From: Escherichia phage EC.P2
Direction: 5' to 3' (one strand)
Length of the DNA: 64,000 nt
Sequence record: PQ631072.1
Positions within the stretch are counted from its first letter, which is position 1. Each line of letters begins with the position of its first letter. The position numbers were made by a program, and so were the translations under genes. The notes beneath the pieces are model-generated. The model had not been told where the DNA came from, searched no databases, and saw nothing but the letters and a program-made list of their open reading frames with translations. Shown piece after piece: positions 4,688 through 27,032 of the stretch.

Positions 4688-4954
4688 TTACTCCGCAATC
4701 TGAGCCATGAATTCACGTAGTTCAGAAAAACCTCCTACGTGGGTTAGATGTTCACCATCTTCCACAAAAATTTGAGGGAAGGTACGTGGCAGAACACCTG
4801 TTTTCTCTAAAACCAGATTCTGAATCTGATCTAAAGAATAGTCTTCATCTAAGGTAAGGTATTTAAAATCCTGTTCACGCTGTTCTAGCAGAATTTTAGC
4901 GTTAGTGCAGAAAGGACAATTTGGTTTACCGTAGATAATAAAATTCATTTTCAC
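4688..4954 (-). CDS. glutaredoxin (likely RNR reductant)
   Basis: 88 aa, CPFC active-site motif near N-terminus (IYGKPNCPFC). Confidence 0.7.
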   Translation of the reverse strand: MKMNFIIYGKPNCPFCTNAKILLEQREQDFKYLTLDEDYSLDQIQNLVLEKTGVLPRTFPQIFVEDGEHLTHVGGFSELREFMAQIAE

Positions 4955-5781
4955 TCCTTGTTTAAAAGTATAGTTAAAGTTCTTACAATACCGCTATCAA
5001 CACTTCGCGGATTTAAAGTAGGATCTGTTTTTAAATAAGATGTTGCTGGTCTGACTGCTTTAGAATTATAGGTTGAAGCAGATACAGGATTAACTGTAAC
5101 AGATAAATCTATAACAAGAAATATCTTTCGTGCAAAATCATACCAAGAAATATAATCTGCACCTGCATAGTGTACAATTTTACTATTTACACCATCTTTT
5201 ACAAGTTTAAAAATTGTTTCTGCCAGATCAGGTGCATAAGTAGGACATGATAAATGATCACATACTACATTAAATTCTTTTTGACCACCGTTGTAGCGTT
5301 CCAACATAGTTTTCAAAAAGTTATGTCCAAACTCACTATAAACAGAAGCTGTTCTGATAATAAGTGCTGTAGGACAAACTGTTTGTACTAAAGTTTCACC
5401 TAATTGTTTACTGTAACCATAGGTGTTCAAGGGGTTTGTTTTACTATCTTCTGTGCCAGCGACATGCCCATCAAAAACATAGTCTGTTGAAATATGTACA
5501 AACTGTATCAGTAAATCATTACATGCTTTGGCAATGTTTGTTGCACCGTATGCATTAACATTTATACAGGTGTTAACATCTTCTTCAGCTTTATCTACTG
5601 CTGTGTAAGCCGCACAATTCACAACAACATCAGGCACGTGCTGTACAAGACTATTCATAACATCTTTAAAGTTGGTAATGTCTATATCACTTGCTTCAAT
5701 CAAAATAACATCTTCTGGCGCAACTTTTGCCAAAGACTGTCCTAATTGACCTTTTGAACCAAAGATTAAAAATTTTGTCAA
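4951..5781 (-). CDS. rmlD: dTDP-4-dehydrorhamnose reductase
   Basis: MTKFLIFGSKGQLGQSL...NCAAYTAVDKAEED...HISTDYVF...YGYSKQLGE parallels E. coli RfbD. Confidence 0.8.
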   Translation of the reverse strand: MTKFLIFGSKGQLGQSLAKVAPEDVILIEASDIDITNFKDVMNSLVQHVPDVVVNCAAYTAVDKAEEDVNTCINVNAYGATNIAKACNDLLIQFVHISTDYVFDGHVAGTEDSKTNPLNTYGYSKQLGETLVQTVCPTALIIRTASVYSEFGHNFLKTMLERYNGGQKEFNVVCDHLSCPTYAPDLAETIFKLVKDGVNSKIVHYAGADYISWYDFARKIFLVIDLSVTVNPVSASTYNSKAVRPATSYLKTDPTLNPRSVDSGIVRTLTILLNKE

Positions 5782-6332
5782 AATATGATCTCCTTTAGTG
5801 TTTTGGCTTGCTGATCTTTTTGTGACAAGATAGGTTTAAAATTAATATCATTAAAGATTAAATCAAAACCCCAATCTATATTGATATCTGGATCATTCCA
5901 CGCAAGACTACACTCTGAAGTCGGATCGTAATATTCTGTGCATTTATATTCAAAATCAGCAATATCGCTAATCACAACAAAACCATGAGCGAAACCAGGA
6001 GGAATCCAAAATTGTGTTTTATTCTTTTCAGATAAGAGAACACCTACCCATTCTCCAAATGTTGGACTACCAACCCTAATATCTACAGCAACATCATAAA
6101 CTTCACCACGAACACAACGTACTAACTTCCCTTGTGGGTTTTTCTTTTGAAAATGAAGCCCACGTAGAACTCCTCGAATAGAACGTGAATGGTTATCTTG
6201 GACAAAGTTTTGTTTACCTATGTATTGATCATATAAAGCCTGATTAAAACTTTCTAAGAAAAAACCACGTTCATCTCCGTAAACGTCAGGTTGAATGATC
6301 AACAAATCTTCGATTTTTGTTGCTTGAATCAT
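5778..6332 (-). CDS. rmlC: dTDP-4-dehydrorhamnose 3,5-epimerase
   Basis: 184 aa cupin; DERGFFLESFN...LRGLHFQ...FWIPPGFAHGF motifs typical of RmlC. Confidence 0.8.
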   Translation of the reverse strand: MIQATKIEDLLIIQPDVYGDERGFFLESFNQALYDQYIGKQNFVQDNHSRSIRGVLRGLHFQKKNPQGKLVRCVRGEVYDVAVDIRVGSPTFGEWVGVLLSEKNKTQFWIPPGFAHGFVVISDIADFEYKCTEYYDPTSECSLAWNDPDINIDWGFDLIFNDINFKPILSQKDQQAKTLKEIIF

Positions 6333-6344
6333 TTAACTCCCCCT

Positions 6345-7214
6345 TTATTTTAATTTAAGTAAATACTTACCGTAGTCTGTTTTACTTAAAACCTCTCCAG
6401 AACTTCTTACAGAGTCTAAAGTAATCCATTCATTTTTAAAAGCAATCTCTTCTAGGCATGCAACCTTCATCCCTTGTTGCTTTTCTATTGCATGAACAAA
6501 TTGAGATGCTTCCATAAGACTTTCATGTGTTCCTGTATCCAGCCAAGTGAAACCCCTTCCTAGTTTACAGACACGTAAAGTCTTTTCTTTCCAGTACATC
6601 TCATTTATATCTGTAATCTCTAACTCCCCTCTAGCAGAAGGTTTAACGCTCTTAGCTTTCTGTATAACAGAATTATCGTAAAAGTACAAGCCTGTGATTG
6701 CATAGTTGCTTTTTGGTGTTTTTGGTTTTTCTTCAATACTCACCACTGTACCTTCAGAATCAAATTCAACAACACCAAATCTTTCAGGATCATTTACGTG
6801 ATACCCAAAAATATTAGCTCCACCATTCTTTTCAATATGTTCTTTAGCAGAATCTAAAATGCTACCAAAACTCTGACCAAAGAATAAATTATCACCTAGC
6901 ACAAGTGCTACAGAATCTTCACCAATAAAGTTCTCACCAATAATAAAGGCTTCTGCTAAACCTTTTGGGCTGTTCTGTACTGCATACTGTAGGGAAATAC
7001 CAAAAGAAGAACCATCACCTAGAAGATTTACAAAATTAACTTGATCTTCTGGTGTTGTAATTATTAGTATTTCCCTAATTCCAGAAAGCATTAGGACAGA
7101 GAGTGGATAATAAATCATAGGCTTATCGTAAATTGGTAATAGTTGTTTACTAACCCCTTTAGTAACTGGGTAAAGTCTTGTTCCACTACCACCTGCTAAG
7201 ATAATACCTTTCAT
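6345..7214 (-). CDS. rmlA: glucose-1-phosphate thymidylyltransferase
   Basis: [39 protein letters not shown] nearly identical in pattern to E. coli RfbA N-terminus. Confidence 0.85.
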
Positions 7215-7222
7215 ACTCCTCC

Positions 7223-8212
7223 TTAAACTTTATTTTCCCACCACTCTTTGTTATCTACATACCAATCAATGGTTGAATAAAGTTTTTCTTCAAATGTGCC
7301 TTTAGCTTTCCACCCTAATTCCTTTTCAATCTTATAAGGATTCACTTCGTATCTTAAATCATGCCCAGGTCTATCTGTAACCATCTCAATGAGGCTACAA
7401 GCATCTGTTTCAGATGGATACACCGCATCCATATAATCACAAATCATATAGATTACATCAATATTAGTTCTAGGGTTTCTGCTTCCAATATTATATGTTT
7501 CTCCAGGTTTGCCTTTAGTTACTACTAGGTGTAATGCTTCTGCGTGATCGTCAACGTATAACCAATCTCTTACTTGAAGACCATTACCATAAACAGGGAT
7601 TGGTTTATGCATCAAGATATTTGTTATCGTTTTAGGTATTAGTTTTTCTGGATGATGATATGCTCCAAAATTATTTGAACAATTTGTTATAACTGTCGGA
7701 ACACCATAAGTACGATGCCACGCTCTTACCAAATGATCGCTTGCTGCCTTAGATGCAGCATATGGACTACTTGGCTTATAAGGATTCTGTTCTGTAAACG
7801 GATAATCCCCTTCTTCCAGATCACCATACACTTCATCTGTTGAAATATGATGGAACATTTTAAGATTTGATTTATCTCCCATTAAACGAACAGCTTCTAG
7901 AAGATTAAATGTCCCAACAATATTTGAATTTATAAAAACACTCGGTGATGCTATTGAATTATCTACGTGACTTTCTGCTGCAAGATGCATTATATAATCT
8001 GGATTAACATCTGCCACAATCTTAGCAGTTAACTGCGCATTTGTCAAGTCAACACGACAAAACTTTACATTAGGTGTTTCTGATAAATTTCTAGGGTCTG
8101 AAGCGTAACCCCATTTATCTATAACGTAAATATCATTCTTAGTATTTTTAGCCAGGAAACGAACTACTGCACTTCCAATAAAGCCTAAACCACCTGTTAC
8201 TAAGTATTTCAT
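7223..8212 (-). CDS. rmlB: dTDP-glucose 4,6-dehydratase
   Basis: [19 protein letters not shown]...[13 protein letters not shown]...[11 protein letters not shown] matches RfbB/RmlB SDR pattern. Confidence 0.85.
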
Positions 8213-20661: not shown

Positions 20662-20697
20662 AATACCTCCAATAAGCCCCCGAAGGGGCTTTATTTC

Positions 20698-21420
20698 TTA
20701 AGCAATGATTGCTGCGATATTAGGTTTAACAAAGGTAGATGGTTTCATAATTTTACCTTTGTCATCAAAGAATACGTATACCTTTTGAACTTCGTTATAT
20801 ACAGCATGTACTCCAGTATAAGAACCTTCTGCACGATCTTTGCTTCGCATCTCGATAGCATCACACTCTTTTTCAAGAGCTTCAACAATATCCTTAGTTT
20901 CCCAAATAGCCAGGAGTTGCTTCTTGGTAGGATACTTGGACTCATTGCTATTCAACACTTCACGCATAACCTTCTTCTCGTTATAAACAGAACGCACCAA
21001 AGTATCTCGTGCCATACGTGTAAGTGTAAGAGACATTAGGGCAAATTGCAAGTCATTTTCTACCATTTTATCAAATTCAATGATAACATCGTAGATGTTT
21101 TCTGCCAGAACATCTCCTGTCGGCATTTCCAGAGCTTTATCAACACCTTCTTTACCAAAGAACATAAACGCCAGGTAGGATGCTACCACAAAAATATCTG
21201 CTGCTGCATCAAGTAATTCAACGTGATCATTTTCCTGTGCTGCTGCTTGGAACTCTTTTAGTTCTTCTCGTACAAAAGAAAGTTGAGCTTCAAACATCTC
21301 TTGAGTAAATTCTGGGGTTACGCCACCACGTGCCTTAGCATTCCAAGCAACAATTTGATCGGCAGCCTTGATAAAGAAGCTATTGTCCACTTTTACTTGT
21401 TTGAAAAAATTCTCGATCAT
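20698..21420 (-). CDS. MazG-like nucleoside triphosphate pyrophosphohydrolase
   Basis: EELKEFQAAAQENDHVELLDAAADIFVV matches all-alpha NTP-PPase EExxE...E...DxxxD metal-binding pattern. Confidence 0.55.
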   Translation of the reverse strand: MIENFFKQVKVDNSFFIKAADQIVAWNAKARGGVTPEFTQEMFEAQLSFVREELKEFQAAAQENDHVELLDAAADIFVVASYLAFMFFGKEGVDKALEMPTGDVLAENIYDVIIEFDKMVENDLQFALMSLTLTRMARDTLVRSVYNEKKVMREVLNSNESKYPTKKQLLAIWETKDIVEALEKECDAIEMRSKDRAEGSYTGVHAVYNEVQKVYVFFDDKGKIMKPSTFVKPNIAAIIA

Positions 21421-22924: not shown

Positions 22925-23142
22925 TTATACACAAGAGTTTGAATCTCTTCCATCAAGTCTTCAAGATCTGTATCAACGTATTCAGAAGATGTTGCCATAA
23001 AGTATGTAATCATTGTGAACCCTTCCGAAGAAAGGGCATCAAGGATATCATTAAACATATCTTCCATTTCAGTATTCTCACCAAATGAGAATAACATTTG
23101 TTGATCTTCGCTTACACCTTTAACATAGATAGCTGTACTCAT
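22918..23142 (-). CDS. hypothetical acidic protein (74 aa)
   Basis: ORF. Confidence 0.35.
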   Translation of the reverse strand: MSTAIYVKGVSEDQQMLFSFGENTEMEDMFNDILDALSSEGFTMITYFMATSSEYVDTDLEDLMEEIQTLVYNW

Positions 23143-23145
23143 ATA

Positions 23146-23466
23146 TTAATCCTTAAGACGTTCATTTAAATCTGCAATAACATCACCTAAATCTTCACAT
23201 TCCAGTGTTAACTCTGAAACTTGTCCACTCAAATAACAAACTTCTTCATTTAAATCTGAAATAATGTTTTCTAATGAATCTACTTGGTCATCATATGAAC
23301 GTTTTGTTTCTTCAAGTTCTTCCGTAAGATCATTAATCAAACGGAGCAAAGATAAGATATAGCCGTCTCCTGTCTCGTTCCTCCACTCACTTCCATAGCG
23401 ATAAATAATAATTTCACCATTATCTACTACTGTAAAATACTTACCTTCACCAGAATAAATTTCCAT
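23146..23466 (-). CDS. hypothetical coiled-coil protein (106 aa)
   Basis: ORF; heptad-like acidic C-terminal half. Confidence 0.4.
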   Translation of the reverse strand: MEIYSGEGKYFTVVDNGEIIIYRYGSEWRNETGDGYILSLLRLINDLTEELEETKRSYDDQVDSLENIISDLNEEVCYLSGQVSELTLECEDLGDVIADLNERLKD

Positions 23467-23475
23467 ACACTCTCC

Positions 23476-23880
23476 TTATTGTAGCTTAAGTGAACTGCGA
23501 AGACGTTTCTCTTGCTGATCACGAATATGTTGTGGAACCTCATGAATTGAGTCGTTACCGTGCCTATTTTCAACAACTAAGGAGATAACTTGATAACCAA
23601 ACTCTTCAGCAAGAGTAAAATAAGGTTTAAGTTCTTTCTCTGTGGTTGAAGTGTTAGAGACAATAATCTTTTTAATATTAGATGCCATAGCATCACGAAC
23701 AATACTCTGACACCATGCGTGTGCTTTACCTACATTCTCTGGCTTCCAATCGTAAACACCACTATCTGTGTAATGATATTGATCTGCCTCACAGATAGGC
23801 CAATAACCTTCAGAAATAATTTCTGCTACTGTAGATTTACCTGCACCTGAAACACCACGTAAGATGATAAGTTGTTTCAT
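23476..23880 (-). CDS. P-loop kinase, probable polynucleotide 5'-kinase
   Basis: 134 aa; Walker A LRGVSGAGKST; ATG overlaps stop of upstream RNA ligase (TAAATG). Confidence 0.55.
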   Translation of the reverse strand: MKQLIILRGVSGAGKSTVAEIISEGYWPICEADQYHYTDSGVYDWKPENVGKAHAWCQSIVRDAMASNIKKIIVSNTSTTEKELKPYFTLAEEFGYQVISLVVENRHGNDSIHEVPQHIRDQQEKRLRSSLKLQ

Positions 23881-24813
23881 TTAGCCTCCAAAGAAGTTTT
23901 CTATTTCTTTACGTCGCTCTTGTGGATCTAAAGCAGCCCATTGAGTTTTAGTAAAGTTGTTTCGAAGCCATTCTAGCAAAGTATAATATTCTTCGTCAAC
24001 AATTTGTTTAGCATTTTTTGGGTTGTCCCAAATCATATCCCACTTCTTATTGCCACCACGCATAAGGAATTTCTTAGCAAGATAGTATGGTGACTTAATC
24101 TTTAACAGCAAGTTAAACGGATAGTTTGTTTCACGAACAACAAACCCTTCGTGCTTACAATGTTTAGACATTTCAACAACATCTGAAAATTTAATCATCG
24201 GATAAACTTCAGGACGTTTAAATTTTGTAATAGATGCAATCCCATCAAGCACACCTTCAGGTAGCATGAAACTTGTCCCATCAGGATTTTGAATCCTTGC
24301 TCCAATTAAGTATGCGCCTGGTTCTTCTTCAACAATATGTGGATCAGAAGGATCACAGATTTCAAAAAGGAAAGTTGCTTTTGCACTTTCTGTCCACTTA
24401 ATGAAATATTCTATGTCATCACACTCGGAAACAATATGATTCTTGGCAAGAATTGCAAAATCTGACTCTAGGCTCCCTGTTGTTGATACAATAAGTTGCC
24501 CTTTGTACACACCTACAGATGCCATAAAACCGTTTACTTTACGGACAGCATCTACAAGCTGGTCTGCTGGAAGATCTGTACCATTCTCAAAACGATTAAA
24601 GATTTTAGTAAAAGGCCAAATAACAACATTGTCTTCTGAGTCAACAACCAACCCACGACAATCTAGAAGGCGTTTGTCTACGTCCCACAAGTTGTCCCAG
24701 AATACATTGTTTTTGTATTTAAGTACAGCAAGACCAGCATACTCTCCAGATTTAACTTCTTTTTTATGCACTAAACCTTTTGCAATCAGGTCATCACAAT
24801 TGAACTTAGCCAC
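23881..24813 (-). CDS. Rnl1-family ATP-dependent RNA ligase
   Basis: GTG start; LDCRGLVVD...KIFNRFEN...RKVNGFMASVGVYKGQLIVSTTGSLESDFA parallels T4 Rnl1 ECRGIMFE...KFFNLNEN...[30 protein letters not shown] including motif I lysine. Confidence 0.7.
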   Translation of the reverse strand: MAKFNCDDLIAKGLVHKKEVKSGEYAGLAVLKYKNNVFWDNLWDVDKRLLDCRGLVVDSEDNVVIWPFTKIFNRFENGTDLPADQLVDAVRKVNGFMASVGVYKGQLIVSTTGSLESDFAILAKNHIVSECDDIEYFIKWTESAKATFLFEICDPSDPHIVEEEPGAYLIGARIQNPDGTSFMLPEGVLDGIASITKFKRPEVYPMIKFSDVVEMSKHCKHEGFVVRETNYPFNLLLKIKSPYYLAKKFLMRGGNKKWDMIWDNPKNAKQIVDEEYYTLLEWLRNNFTKTQWAALDPQERRKEIENFFGG

Positions 24814-24814
24814 C

Positions 24815-25366
24815 TTAATCTCCTTTGATTATCTTATGATGGTCTACAACAACAATATCACGCTTATCCATAATAGAGATGATTTCGTCAAAATGCAAGA
24901 TTTTTCCGTGTGCGTCCCAACCAACATCCAACATTTTCCCATACAAATGATCAGGGAATGATCCGTGAGAGTGCCCGTGTAGCATGATTGATCCATGCCC
25001 TTGTTTATTCCAGGAAGCCATAGGGTAATGGCTTAAGACGAAGAACAGTTTCTGATATTTCACTTCATCATAATACACCACCTCGCCATATTCTGCAAGC
25101 ACTTCTCGGTGTTTGCTGTAATCATGGTTCCCAACACAGTAAGTGATATCACCTTGGAGACGGGAAGCAATCTTACGGGTATCTTCTTCAGTCCCGAAAC
25201 AGAAGTCCCCAAGATGGTACATCTTTACTCCTGGTGTTGTGGCACATTTATTCCATGCTTCGATCAGTGCTTCTGTCATATGCTCCATATCTTCCCACGG
25301 GCGATATTCAGGAGCAAACTCTCGGATACGTTTGTGCATAAAATGCAAATCACTTGTAATAAACAT
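24815..25366 (-). CDS. calcineurin-like metallophosphoesterase
   Basis: 183 aa; DLHFMH, LGDFCFG and GNHDY metal-binding motifs. Confidence 0.65.
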   Translation of the reverse strand: MFITSDLHFMHKRIREFAPEYRPWEDMEHMTEALIEAWNKCATTPGVKMYHLGDFCFGTEEDTRKIASRLQGDITYCVGNHDYSKHREVLAEYGEVVYYDEVKYQKLFFVLSHYPMASWNKQGHGSIMLHGHSHGSFPDHLYGKMLDVGWDAHGKILHFDEIISIMDKRDIVVVDHHKIIKGD

Positions 25367-25728
25367 TAGTATAATCCCTCGCTGAATAGTTCACTGTCGT
25401 GACCATTTCTTTCGTAGTTAATTTGTTTGGCGTTATCTGCAATGATATAAGCATCTTTGCGACTCCACCAGTTATAATACTGGTCAATAAACCCTTGATT
25501 ATCAGGTAAGCAAAACAGTTTATCAATCAATCCTGCATCTTTTAAAACATTAATTTGTGCAGATAGTACAGGATTCGCATGCCTAACACAAGGAATAATT
25601 AACTCTTCGCCATTGTTGAGAATATACTTATTCGCAGCGCAGACTATAACACGTTGAGCATAGTGATCCTCACCAATCCAAGTAAGAGGTTGGTAACAAA
25701 TATCATGTTGATTAGTAGTGCACATCAA
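25366..25728 (-). CDS. hypothetical protein (120 aa)
   Basis: ORF translationally coupled to phosphoesterase (ATGA overlap). Confidence 0.45.
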   Translation of the reverse strand: MMCTTNQHDICYQPLTWIGEDHYAQRVIVCAANKYILNNGEELIIPCVRHANPVLSAQINVLKDAGLIDKLFCLPDNQGFIDQYYNWWSRKDAYIIADNAKQINYERNGHDSELFSEGLY

Positions 25729-25871
25729 TTTTCTTCATACTCTTCGTCTGTATGTATATCGTAAAAGCAATCTTCAAAAGTTGCAAGTGCTTTTTCTACA
25801 TCGGGCCAATGGTTAGTGTGTTTGTATATATAAAACCCATCCCCTTCATCTACCCAAATAACATAAAGCAT
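25725..25871 (-). CDS. small protein (48 aa)
   Basis: Unlisted ORF MLYVIWVDEGDGFYIYKHTNHWPDVEKALATFEDCFYDIHTDEEYEEN with TAAGGAGG RBS. Confidence 0.35.
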   Translation of the reverse strand: MLYVIWVDEGDGFYIYKHTNHWPDVEKALATFEDCFYDIHTDEEYEEN

Positions 25872-25880
25872 AACACCTCC

Positions 25881-26222
25881 TTAATAGTTAACACGTTTAA
25901 TTTCAACACCATAGGATGAAATAAAATTTTCCTTAGCTAACATATATTTACCAGCAGCAGAAGGGTTTGATGTATGGACATAGATAGTTTTAAGAGCATC
26001 CCATTCACCCGCATACAACATACATTCTACGTCTAAGAATGCATGATATCCTTCCTGATCTTCTCCAAGATCATTATCGAAGTGTATCTCTGAGATATTA
26101 TTGAAATTATCTTCATCTGAAACAAAAGATAACCAATCCTCAAAAGATTTTAACCAAATGGCATCCTCATAACCATAATCTTTAGGATCTCTTAAATCGT
26201 CTAACCAAAGAATTTTAGCCAC
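25881..26222 (-). CDS. receiver-like domain protein (113 aa)
   Basis: GTG start at 26222 with AAGGGGG RBS; N-terminal AKILWLDDLRDP resembles the hydrophobic-strand-plus-acidic-pair start of receiver (REC) folds. Confidence 0.35.
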   Translation of the reverse strand: MAKILWLDDLRDPKDYGYEDAIWLKSFEDWLSFVSDEDNFNNISEIHFDNDLGEDQEGYHAFLDVECMLYAGEWDALKTIYVHTSNPSAAGKYMLAKENFISSYGVEIKRVNY

Positions 26223-26224
26223 TA

Positions 26225-26416
26225 TCAACCCCCTTCTTGTTTCTCTTCTTTCCAAGTTTTACCATTATCTACCAACCTCTTAGAAACAGCAAATCTTTCT
26301 CCATTGATATAAAACAAATAAAGAATAAAGGATTTTCCTATAGTTACAGTATCTACTACTTCTACACGCTTCACACCTTGCATGTATTTGGCTTTACCTG
26401 AATAAATAAGGAACAT
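26225..26416 (-). CDS. hypothetical protein (63 aa)
   Basis: ORF. Confidence 0.35.
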   Translation of the reverse strand: MFLIYSGKAKYMQGVKRVEVVDTVTIGKSFILYLFYINGERFAVSKRLVDNGKTWKEEKQEGG

Positions 26417-26694
26417 TACTTATTCCTTTTGTTGTTGATCACATCTAAAGCTGTGTAAGGTTTGTTTGTACCGCTGTATTCAAGAATAATTGGTACATAT
26501 TCATAGACCAACTCAAAAGTACCATACATAGAATCTGCAACTGAAATAAGCATTTCAGTGCCTTTGTCGTTCTTAATTAATGAAAATCTTGCCCCTGGTT
26601 TATTGAGCACTTCATATTTCTTACCTGCTGTCAGCAAACCTGAATACCATTCATTTTGCACAACAGACAAACACTTCAGATAAGTTTTTCTCAT
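26416..26694 (-). CDS. hypothetical protein (92 aa)
   Basis: ORF. Confidence 0.4.
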   Translation of the reverse strand: MRKTYLKCLSVVQNEWYSGLLTAGKKYEVLNKPGARFSLIKNDKGTEMLISVADSMYGTFELVYEYVPIILEYSGTNKPYTALDVINNKRNK

Positions 26695-27032
26695 TTCTTT
26701 TTGCTCCTTCTTTTAGGCTTCTCGTATAAACCTAACACAGCCGACTCTTTTGCGCAAATAGGAACTGACTTCATTCCTCGTTTTTTAGCTTCTGGTAGAT
26801 TCAAAACCCACCAGCCAAACCAGTACAATTCATCTTCTGTGAAAGGATCTGCCATAGGATCTGCATCACGTGCTTCAAATTTAGCAAGAGCTTCTTCTAT
26901 CTTTTCTATTGGAGTATCAAAGACAAAAGCCTCTGTGTCAAATTTTTGTTTCTTAGGAGCGGCTTTTGCCGCCCCATCTTTAGATGCGCGCTTTGTTACG
27001 GATCGCTTCTTCGGTGTTTTCGCCATCAACAA
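26691..27032 (-). CDS. basic protein with Lys/Ala-rich N-terminus, possible DNA-binding (113 aa)
   Basis: MAKTPKKRSVTKRASKDGAAKAAPKKQK histone-H1-like tail and basic C-terminus KPKRRSKKK. Confidence 0.4.
   Translation of the reverse strand: MLMAKTPKKRSVTKRASKDGAAKAAPKKQKFDTEAFVFDTPIEKIEEALAKFEARDADPMADPFTEDELYWFGWWVLNLPEAKKRGMKSVPICAKESAVLGLYEKPKRRSKKK

Follow-up and report, generated by a model that had tools for sequence, protein, structure and literature searches.

A predicted RNA end-healing and sealing gene set of stand-alone enzymes in Escherichia phage EC.P2

A stretch of 64,000 nucleotides (nt) of Escherichia phage EC.P2 (sequence record PQ631072.1), referred to here as the window, carries on its minus strand a string of genes whose products are predicted to heal and seal broken RNA ends. 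The open reading frames (ORFs) and their junctions were read straight from the sequence. The interval 26222..23476 contains six tightly packed minus-strand ORFs and not the five coupled genes counted in a first-pass annotation of the same DNA. From the upstream to the downstream end they are as follows (aa, amino acids):

26222..25881, minus strand: cREC protein, 113 aa, GTG start
25871..25725, minus strand: 48-aa ORF, ATG start, annotated as a coding sequence in the records of relatives
25725..25366, minus strand: 119-aa ORF of the Arn.3 family, ATG start at 25725
25366..24815, minus strand: metallophosphoesterase, 183 aa, ATG start
24813..23881, minus strand: predicted Rnl1-type ligase, 310 aa, GTG start
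23880..23476, minus strand: P-loop kinase, 134 aa, ATG start

The cREC gene and the 48-aa ORF are joined as TAA-9 nt-ATG, with GGAGG in the spacer; apart from this single 9-nt spacer, genes throughout the string are spaced by 0 to 1 nt, as a gap or as an overlap. The 48-aa and 119-aa ORFs meet at TGATG, and the 119-aa ORF and the phosphoesterase gene at TAATG, each with a 1-nt overlap. The phosphoesterase and ligase genes are separated by a 1-nt gap (TAAgGTG), and the ligase and kinase genes by none (TAAATG). The tight coupling and the TAAATG junction described previously are therefore real, but the 4-nt ATGA overlap reported with them is absent here. Similarly, a TTG start at 25728 had been given for the 119-aa gene, where relatives annotate the ATG at 25725. 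Small ORFs of the same orientation extend the string on both sides, forming a long leftward block from about 27900 to a hairpin near 20680. A promoter and terminator scan gave counts at the level of shuffled sequence, so the limits of the operon were not delimited by it.

The 310-aa protein is a predicted Rnl1-type, ATP-dependent RNA ligase, with family and catalytic residues assigned from sequence and the fold from a structural model. It passes Pfam PF09511 (RNA_lig_T4_1) with 53.3 bits against a cutoff of 28.3 (E = 4.5e-14), and matches phrog_562, the T4 gp63 family (E = 1.3e-68). A single-sequence phmmer search of the Protein Data Bank (PDB) returned chance matches only and did not reach T4 Rnl1. 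A profile of five divergent homologues retrieved three T4 Rnl1 sequences at E of about 1e-13, followed by an archaeal Rnl3 at 7e-3. The earlier description of a block-for-block correspondence with T4 Rnl1 is thus too strong for a single-sequence comparison. Residues were matched through the profile alignment to T4 Rnl1 together with an alignment of 30 homologues. R53, K70, K92, G95, E151, E222-G223 and K238/K240, corresponding to R54, K75, K99, G102, E159, E227-G228 and K240/K242 of T4 Rnl1, are invariant, and F72 (T4 Rnl1 F77) is at least 90% conserved. In a published mutational analysis, R54, K75 and F77 were reportedly essential, Rnl1-specific N-terminal elements of the T4 enzyme.

The first-pass annotation had named the lack of a motif I lysine, or a place among DNA ligases, as grounds for doubting an Rnl1-type enzyme. 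The lysine is present as K92 of the motif K92-V-N-G95 and is invariant in the 30 homologues. Furthermore, the fold of the ligase model is nearest to Rnl1, not to Rnl2, Rnl3, Rnl5 or DNA ligases: T4 Rnl1 scored 22.0 (265 aligned residues, 17% identity), fungal Trl1 ligase domains 21.1-21.5, Rnl3 15.8-17, Rnl5 13.9, Rnl2 12.8-13.7, and DNA ligases 11.3 or less, which places the protein outside the DNA-ligase clade. TRNA specificity of Rnl1-type ligases has been linked to a helical domain at the C-terminus; the C-terminus of the window model (residues 242-307) is helical and may be equivalent to it in part. Both the family cutoff and the profile and fold comparisons therefore agree with the Rnl1 type originally proposed. 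As a separate observation, a 738-aa 'metallophosphoesterase' of Fusobacterium phage Fnu1 (locus L007, 2735..4951) contains a ligase-like region matching residues 7-245 of the query with 24% identity, and phrog_8238 (737 positions) matches the window kinase at its N-terminus and the window ligase at its C-terminus. Therefore, fused multi-domain versions of the enzyme set probably exist in other phages.

The 134-aa protein downstream of the ligase is a predicted stand-alone polynucleotide 5'-kinase. The Walker A motif noted earlier is present as GVSGAGKST. The protein matches AAA_33 (E = 1.3e-9), phrog_2071 (E = 8e-58) and phrog_505, 'polynucleotide kinase' (E = 8e-9). With a five-sequence profile, the best relative of solved structure was Capnocytophaga Pnkp1 (4xrp, 2e-6), followed by a Rhizopus kinase (9d8a, 2e-5), Clostridium thermocellum CthPnk (4gp7, 2e-3, near end-to-end) and T4 Pnk (1ly1, 5e-3); uridine, gluconate and nicotinamide riboside (NR) kinases scored 1e-3 to 3e-2. 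Thus, on the question raised earlier of whether this could be an enzyme of nucleotide metabolism, the best solved relatives are polynucleotide kinases, with weak E-values. The P-loop G9-VSGAG-K15-S16 and Asp33 are invariant in five divergent homologues. D33 aligns with an Asp of the 'VNRDDF' segment of Pnkp1, at the position of the general-base Asp in T4 Pnk and CthPnk. The assignment as a polynucleotide kinase rests on this invariant P-loop and Asp33 and on synteny with the ligase as much as on the weak profile scores. No fused 3'-phosphatase domain was found in the protein, either of the HAD type of T4 Pnkp or of the metallophosphoesterase type of bacterial Pnkp; it consists of the kinase domain alone.

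Upstream of the ligase lies a protein with all five metal-binding motifs of its superfamily: D6-L-H8, G53-D54, G79-N80-H81-D82, H113 and G131-H132-x-H134. The GDxxxG and GNHD signatures from which a calcineurin-type phosphoesterase had been recognized are both there, the former as GDFCFG. All five motifs are invariant in four divergent homologues. The protein matches phrog_547, 'phosphoesterase' (E = 3e-55), and PDB entry 1xm7 (aq_1665) at E = 4e-7 as a single sequence and 1.8e-18 as a profile. Because of these motifs and the 1xm7 match, we place it in the calcineurin-like metallophosphoesterases, as a predicted 3'-end phosphomonoesterase and possibly also a cyclic phosphodiesterase. When its profile was run against all PDB sequences, no Pnkp or lambda-phosphatase-type chain appeared at E <= 1; the search returned only aq_1665, weak Rv0805/Icc matches and spurious designed repeat proteins.

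The first gene of the string encodes a protein matching Pfam PF20274, cREC_REC (E = 3e-14, 53.9 bits against a cutoff of 27), and also phrog_1479. Its receiver-like N-terminus had been noticed before and is indeed present (LWLDDLRDP); the domain is the already named cREC. The motifs WLDDxRDP, HFDNDLGE and VHTSNPSA are conserved in eight homologues from rV5-, PVP-SE1- and phi92-like phages. No histidine kinase was found among the annotations of the region around the gene. The cREC domain was defined computationally by the Aravind group, who predicted a metal-free opening of 2',3'-cyclic phosphates or of 1''-2'' cyclic ADP-ribose phosphate (PMC7824862 sections 3.4.8-3.4.9; PMC9503650 sections 3.1, 3.4.5). 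Accordingly, on the basis of this family assignment, we predict that the protein serves the set as its 2',3'-cyclic phosphodiesterase, acting without metal.

Whether these genes belong together can be judged from other phages. IMG/VR was scanned with the ligase alignment, giving 389 confirmed relatives; the best 80 loci, with ligase homologues of 37-99% identity, were analysed in a 6-kb window around the ligase. Neighbours were detected with local profiles for the kinase, phosphoesterase, cREC and Arn.3 proteins, and with single-sequence searches for Sir2, MazG, phosphoribosyl pyrophosphate (PRPP) synthetase and DNA ligase. A phosphoesterase is present in 76 of the 80 loci (on the ligase strand in 75, within 1.6 kb in 73), a kinase in 62, and the two together in 60. 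When the ligases are clustered at 60% identity, both partners occur in 28 of 32 clusters. They lie nearly always on the ligase strand, and gene order differs between lineages. This co-occurrence is far beyond chance and defines phosphoesterase, Rnl1 and kinase as the conserved core. The remaining neighbours are less frequent: DNA ligase (34/80), PRPP synthetase (32/80), a MazG-like gene (12/80), Sir2 (11/80), cREC (10/80) and an Arn.3-like gene (3/80). Of these, cREC and Sir2 belong as accessory genes to the enterobacterial rV5/PVP-SE1/phi92-like group. The order in PVP-SE1-like phages is phosphoesterase-ligase-kinase-Sir2-cREC; in the window, cREC stands upstream with the 48-aa and Arn.3-like genes. 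Sir2 is missing from the two phi92-like loci of the 80-locus set, and a phmmer search with a Vequintavirus Sir2 against all ORFs of the window gave no match at E <= 1.

When RNases of defence systems or toxins cut without metal, the break carries a 2',3'-cyclic phosphate and a 5'-OH; HEPN RNases, colicin-type tRNases and two anticodon nucleases, PrrC and RloC, are of this kind. We consider it probable, at roughly 0.75, that the string encodes a phage module that would heal and seal such RNA ends with stand-alone enzymes along a T4-like pathway. In this pathway, the 134-aa kinase would phosphorylate the 5'-OH, and the cyclic phosphate would be opened by cREC, by the metallophosphoesterase, or by both. 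The metallophosphoesterase would then strip the resulting phosphate to leave a 3'-OH, and the ligase, adenylated on Lys92, would join this 3'-OH to the 5'-phosphate. A tRNA of the host, or one from the phage's own island of 16 tRNA genes, would thus be restored, and translation with it. All enzymatic activities are inferred here, as are the sharing of work between cREC and phosphoesterase, the tRNA substrate and the counter-defence role, including that against anticodon nucleases. The first-pass annotation had likewise seen separate kinase, metallophosphoesterase and Rnl1-type ligase as a healing-and-sealing set with a receiver-like partner, and family, profile, fold and conserved neighbourhood support that view.

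Several observations weigh against this T4-like pathway. The kinase resembles solved polynucleotide kinases weakly (E = 2e-6 to 5e-3) among many P-loop kinases, and residues equivalent to Arg38 and Arg126 of T4 Pnk were not established in it. The phosphoesterase scores 21.5 bits with Metallophos_2, under the cutoff of 27, and its solved relative aq_1665 is a structural-genomics protein from a family without a characterised member. In the ligase family, Asp101 of T4 Rnl1 is replaced by an invariant N94; the window protein is also 64 aa shorter than T4 Rnl1 (310 vs 374 aa), and its C-terminal region may not be fully equivalent. Besides, BASEL phages of the Stephanstirmvirinae stay sensitive to the Toprim tRNase retron Eco2 (PMC12916289). 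Since this retron nicks acceptor stems, which is a different cut, and T4-like phages are restricted too (PMC12916289), its effect neither supports nor refutes the model.

The wider surroundings supply further genes that bear on what the string might do:

20698..21420, minus strand: MazG/PRA-PH-type pyrophosphohydrolase, 240 aa (PF01503, E = 3e-7)
28258..29151, plus strand: PRPP synthetase (PF00156/PF14572)
29223..30956, plus strand: nicotinamide phosphoribosyltransferase, NAMPT (PF04095, E = 5e-38)
31704..34592, plus strand: island of 16 tRNA genes (ARAGORN)

The MazG-like gene lies about 2 kb downstream of the repair genes and is part of the same minus-strand transcription block. PRPP synthetase and NAMPT form an NAD+ salvage pair about 2 kb off, divergent from the repair block and just upstream of the tRNA island. 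The island itself had been noted before and was confirmed by ARAGORN; it includes a tRNA-Lys(UUU) gene and three genes with a CAU anticodon (31704, 34201, 34292). PrrC cleaves tRNA-Lys(UUU). One phage would thus carry both decoy tRNAs and a repair module, and the recurrence of PRPP synthetase near Rnl1 suggests a recurrent counter-defence island of RNA repair, NAD+ reconstitution and tRNAs. A side observation concerns annotation: the second 'putative Sir2-like protein' of Vequintavirus naam (naam_1; locus L004, 7046..7759) is homologous to the window MazG-like protein (phmmer E = 5e-16). We therefore rejected it as a sirtuin; being homologous to a MazG/PRA-PH-type pyrophosphohydrolase, it is likely an annotation error propagated in rV5-like genomes.

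The proximity of the ligase fold to Trl1 in the model, nearly equal to that of T4 Rnl1, raises the question of a fungal- or plant-type route. Here cREC would open the cyclic phosphate to a 3'-OH/2'-PO4 end, the ligase would seal this 2'-phosphorylated end, and the junction 2'-phosphate would be removed later, by an NAD+-dependent sirtuin in rV5- and PVP-SE1-like relatives and by the metallophosphoesterase or another operon protein in EC.P2. The second-best solved match of the kinase profile is fungal (Rhizopus), Sir2 adjoins cREC, ligase and kinase in close relatives (11 of 80 loci), and NAD+ salvage genes are close by. A pathway of this kind, with the sirtuin acting like Tpt1, has been proposed for sirtuin-containing neighbourhoods (PMC9503650 section 3.7.3). 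However, phmmer found no sirtuin in the window, no KptA/Tpt1 or 2H enzyme is among the annotations, and most ligase loci (about 69 of 80) lack both cREC and Sir2 but have phosphoesterase and kinase, which fits full phosphate removal before ligation. We regard the route as rather unlikely for this phage. The same NAD+ genes could be read in another way, with cREC, and possibly the phosphoesterase, destroying immune signals or by-products rather than acting on RNA ends; cyclic ADP-ribose derivatives, ADPr>P, cyclic oligonucleotides or 2',3'-cyclic nucleoside monophosphates (2',3'-cNMPs) would be candidate substrates, and an NAD+/nucleotide counter-defence island would stand beside the ligase and kinase. 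Consistent with this, cREC has been proposed to act on 2',3'-cyclic RNA ends or 1''-2'' cyclic ADP-ribose and frequently occurs in fusion with Nudix (PMC9503650 section 3.4.5; PMC7824862 section 3.4.8), PRPP synthetase and NAMPT are about 2 kb away with a PRPP synthetase homologue near the ligase in 32 of 80 loci, and the MazG-like gene shares the transcription block. The linkage of the phosphoesterase to the ligase, however, is far closer than that of any NAD+ gene (76/80, 73 of them within 1.6 kb); if the phosphoesterase were left out, most phages would have nothing in the set to heal 3' ends, and the cREC gene is translationally packed into the same string. A small-molecule role in place of RNA-end healing is thus quite improbable.

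The T4 precedent also allows for a ligase whose main task is not repair. T4 gp63 has two roles, as the PHROG label 'RNA ligase and tail fiber protein attachment catalyst' shows, and the window ligase might serve in tail-fibre attachment, or in maturation of phage tRNA or other RNAs, with its neighbours belonging to nucleotide metabolism. Genes of that kind are indeed abundant around it (ribonucleotide reductase, thymidylate synthase, thymidine kinase, MazG). Against this stand the catalytic residues of the ligase, all invariant across the 30 homologues, and the partnership with kinase and phosphoesterase in 28 of 32 clusters, which corresponds to a need of end healing and not of tail assembly; moreover, ARAGORN predicted no intron in any of the 16 tRNA genes. 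Such a role therefore appears very improbable, and healing followed by sealing along the T4-like pathway remains our preferred reading of the string.

Two genes of the string lie outside the enzyme set. The 48-aa ORF has its own GGAGG Shine-Dalgarno sequence, occurs only in phi92-like loci within the 80-locus set, and had no family match in Pfam, NCBIfam and PHROG scans. The 119-aa protein belongs to the T4 Arn.3 family (phrog_839; precomputed label PF26092), with about 45% identity to T4-type arn.3 ORFs; Pfam and NCBIfam scans returned nothing for it, and the label PF26092 appears in no paper. The family is found in 1536 phage records. A HMMER scan collected 333 cluster representatives, in which a core of about 95 aa is often C-terminal in longer proteins; the N-terminal extensions of ten such proteins contained no Pfam domain. 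Conserved polar residues are R48-H49, Q77-G78-F79-x-D81, R89, Q101 and S115-E116. A confident model of the protein matched no solved fold; against predicted viral structures it matched uncharacterised phage proteins and 'large polyvalent protein associated' domains. We rejected the label 'putative anti-restriction nuclease', which some database entries give this protein, as the homologous T4-type ORF is arn.3 and not arn, and the label was transferred from the neighbouring arn gene. In T4-type phages arn.3 is without an assigned function (bioRxiv 10.64898/2026.06.19.733364). A general link between Arn.3 and RNA repair was considered and also rejected: the gene is near the ligase in 3 of 80 loci, one distant lineage has an arn.3-like gene two genes upstream of the ligase, and this is too little. 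In Derbicusvirus, Certrevirus and Kuttervirus, Arn.3 homologues occur among varied neighbours. The Arn.3-like protein is thus probably an accessory or passenger gene and not a core repair gene. Its confidently predicted fold without a solved relative and its enzyme-like invariant residues (RH, QGFxD, R, Q, SE) leave room for a bolder idea, that sirtuin-less phi92-like phages use Trl1-like, 2'-phosphate-dependent ligation with the Arn.3-family protein as a new enzyme of RNA-end or junction processing, for example as the 2'-phosphate remover replacing the sirtuin. We consider this a very long shot; if true, it would give the widespread T4 arn.3 family its first function.

Two further observations concern neighbouring genes. 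Directly downstream of the kinase, after a 9-nt spacer, a 106-aa coiled-coil protein (23146..23466, minus strand) may share the transcription unit; it matches phrog_18076 ('hol-like chemotaxis') and has no informative domain. Farther off, at 4951..8212 (minus strand), four consecutive genes are named as nucleotide-sugar enzymes in the near-identical phage PHB05: glucose-1-phosphate thymidylyltransferase, dTDP-4-dehydrorhamnose 3,5-epimerase and two nucleotide-sugar epimerases/dehydratases. Judged by the PHB05 annotation, from which the coordinates were mapped, they would form a phage-borne dTDP-sugar pathway of rhamnose type.

Over 23100..26700, the DNA matches Serratia phage KKP_3264 at 99.0% identity. 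Many Escherichia phages of the phi92-like genus Justusliebigvirus (Stephanstirmvirinae) match this region at 96-98.7%, among them the BASEL phage PaulScherrer (Bas60) at 97.6%. The record of PaulScherrer labels the genes 'polynucleotide kinase', 'RNA ligase' and 'putative phosphoesterase', and that of PD06 'putative RNA ligase/RNA repair', 'phosphoesterase' and 'ATPase'. In the phage collection, 752 records carry the ligase, and annotated examples of the phosphoesterase, ligase and kinase also occur in Vequintavirus, Pakpunavirus, Thalassavirus and Busanvirus. Iyer, Burroughs, Anantharaman and Aravind (2022) described an rV5/Mydo-type neighbourhood of T4-like ligase, cREC, kinase, MazG, sirtuin and sometimes a calcineurin-like phosphoesterase (PMC9503650 section 3.7.3), and the same pathway has been predicted there and elsewhere (PMC7824862 section 3.4.9; PMC12846349); a Pakpunavirus kinase homologue was described as lacking a 3'-phosphatase domain (PMC12846349). 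The cluster type is thus not new, being annotated in near-identical GenBank records and published in silico as a neighbourhood, and most phages with this ligase have the phosphoesterase/Rnl1/kinase set in split form. Calling its architecture unusual, as had been done, overstated the case. Particular to EC.P2 are the lack of a sirtuin, the inserted Arn.3-like protein and a phosphoesterase outside the Pnkp/lambda-phosphatase family.

In other words, the window adds no new concept to a prediction already in databases and literature, and its interest is modest, centred on cREC, the aq_1665-type enzymes and the unexplained Arn.3-family protein. Cleavage of tRNA is now seen as a widespread means of immunity (PrrC, RloC, Cas13, PARIS, retrons, OLD). 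To our knowledge, T4 is the only phage with experimentally established counter-measures beyond decoy tRNAs, and the split set is much commoner in large phages than the T4 arrangement. PaulScherrer (Bas60), which carries the 97.6% identical operon and grows on E. coli K-12, offers a convenient test system.

Compared with the rV5/Mydo-type neighbourhood (PMC9503650), the string and its surroundings share five of six listed components (T4-like tRNA ligase, cREC, nucleotide kinase, MazG-family pyrophosphatase and calcineurin-like phosphoesterase). The window ligase is 47% identical to the Vequintavirus ligase and 79% to that of PVP-SE1, and the window cREC is clearly homologous to the cREC proteins of these neighbourhoods (E = 2e-29). 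However, the defining sirtuin is absent by phmmer from the whole window, cREC sits at the 5' end of the string, and the 48-aa ORF and Arn.3-like gene lie between cREC and the phosphoesterase. Set against fungal and plant Trl1 (LIG-KIN-CPD) with Tpt1, the predicted activities correspond one for one as ligase, kinase and cyclic phosphodiesterase (CPD), with cREC replacing the 2H CPD domain; here, however, the proteins are separate, the cyclic phosphodiesterase has another fold, and there is no Tpt1/KptA or sirtuin.

The bacterial Pnkp-Hen1 and Pnkp1-Rnl-Hen1 systems of Clostridium thermocellum and Capnocytophaga gingivalis also use an enzyme of the metallophosphoesterase superfamily for 3' healing, and Pnkp1 (4xrp) is the top solved match of the window kinase profile, with CthPnk matching near end-to-end. 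In contrast to the separate genes found here, kinase, phosphatase and ligase are united there, as domains of a single polypeptide or in a stable complex, and their phosphoesterase is lambda-phosphatase-like, whereas the window enzyme is aq_1665-like. No methyltransferase domain corresponding to the Hen1 2'-O-methyltransferase was found in the operon genes or in the flanking ORFs scanned. The suggestion that the chemistry is closer to Pnkp/Hen1 thus stands at the level of the superfamily, but not beyond it, given an aq_1665-like family, no Pnkp match at E <= 1 and no Hen1. With T4 Pnkp and Rnl1, which counter PrrC, the window shares the family, fold and catalytic residues of the ligase, a P-loop 5'-kinase resembling polynucleotide kinase, the setting in a large lytic phage and, as predicted here, the logic of healing a 5'-OH and a 2',3'-cyclic phosphate before sealing. 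Unlike in T4, the 134-aa kinase stands alone, without the fused HAD (DxDxT) 3'-phosphatase, and 3' healing is assigned to a separate binuclear metallophosphoesterase and cREC, so that the phosphatase fold differs. The ligase is also smaller (310 aa, T4 Rnl1 374 aa; 17% identity across 265 residues aligned by structure), and the genes form one tight operon, which rnlA and pseT of T4 do not. The module is therefore not a Pnkp-Hen1 system; in its predicted logic it works like T4 Pnkp and Rnl1, but it is built otherwise.

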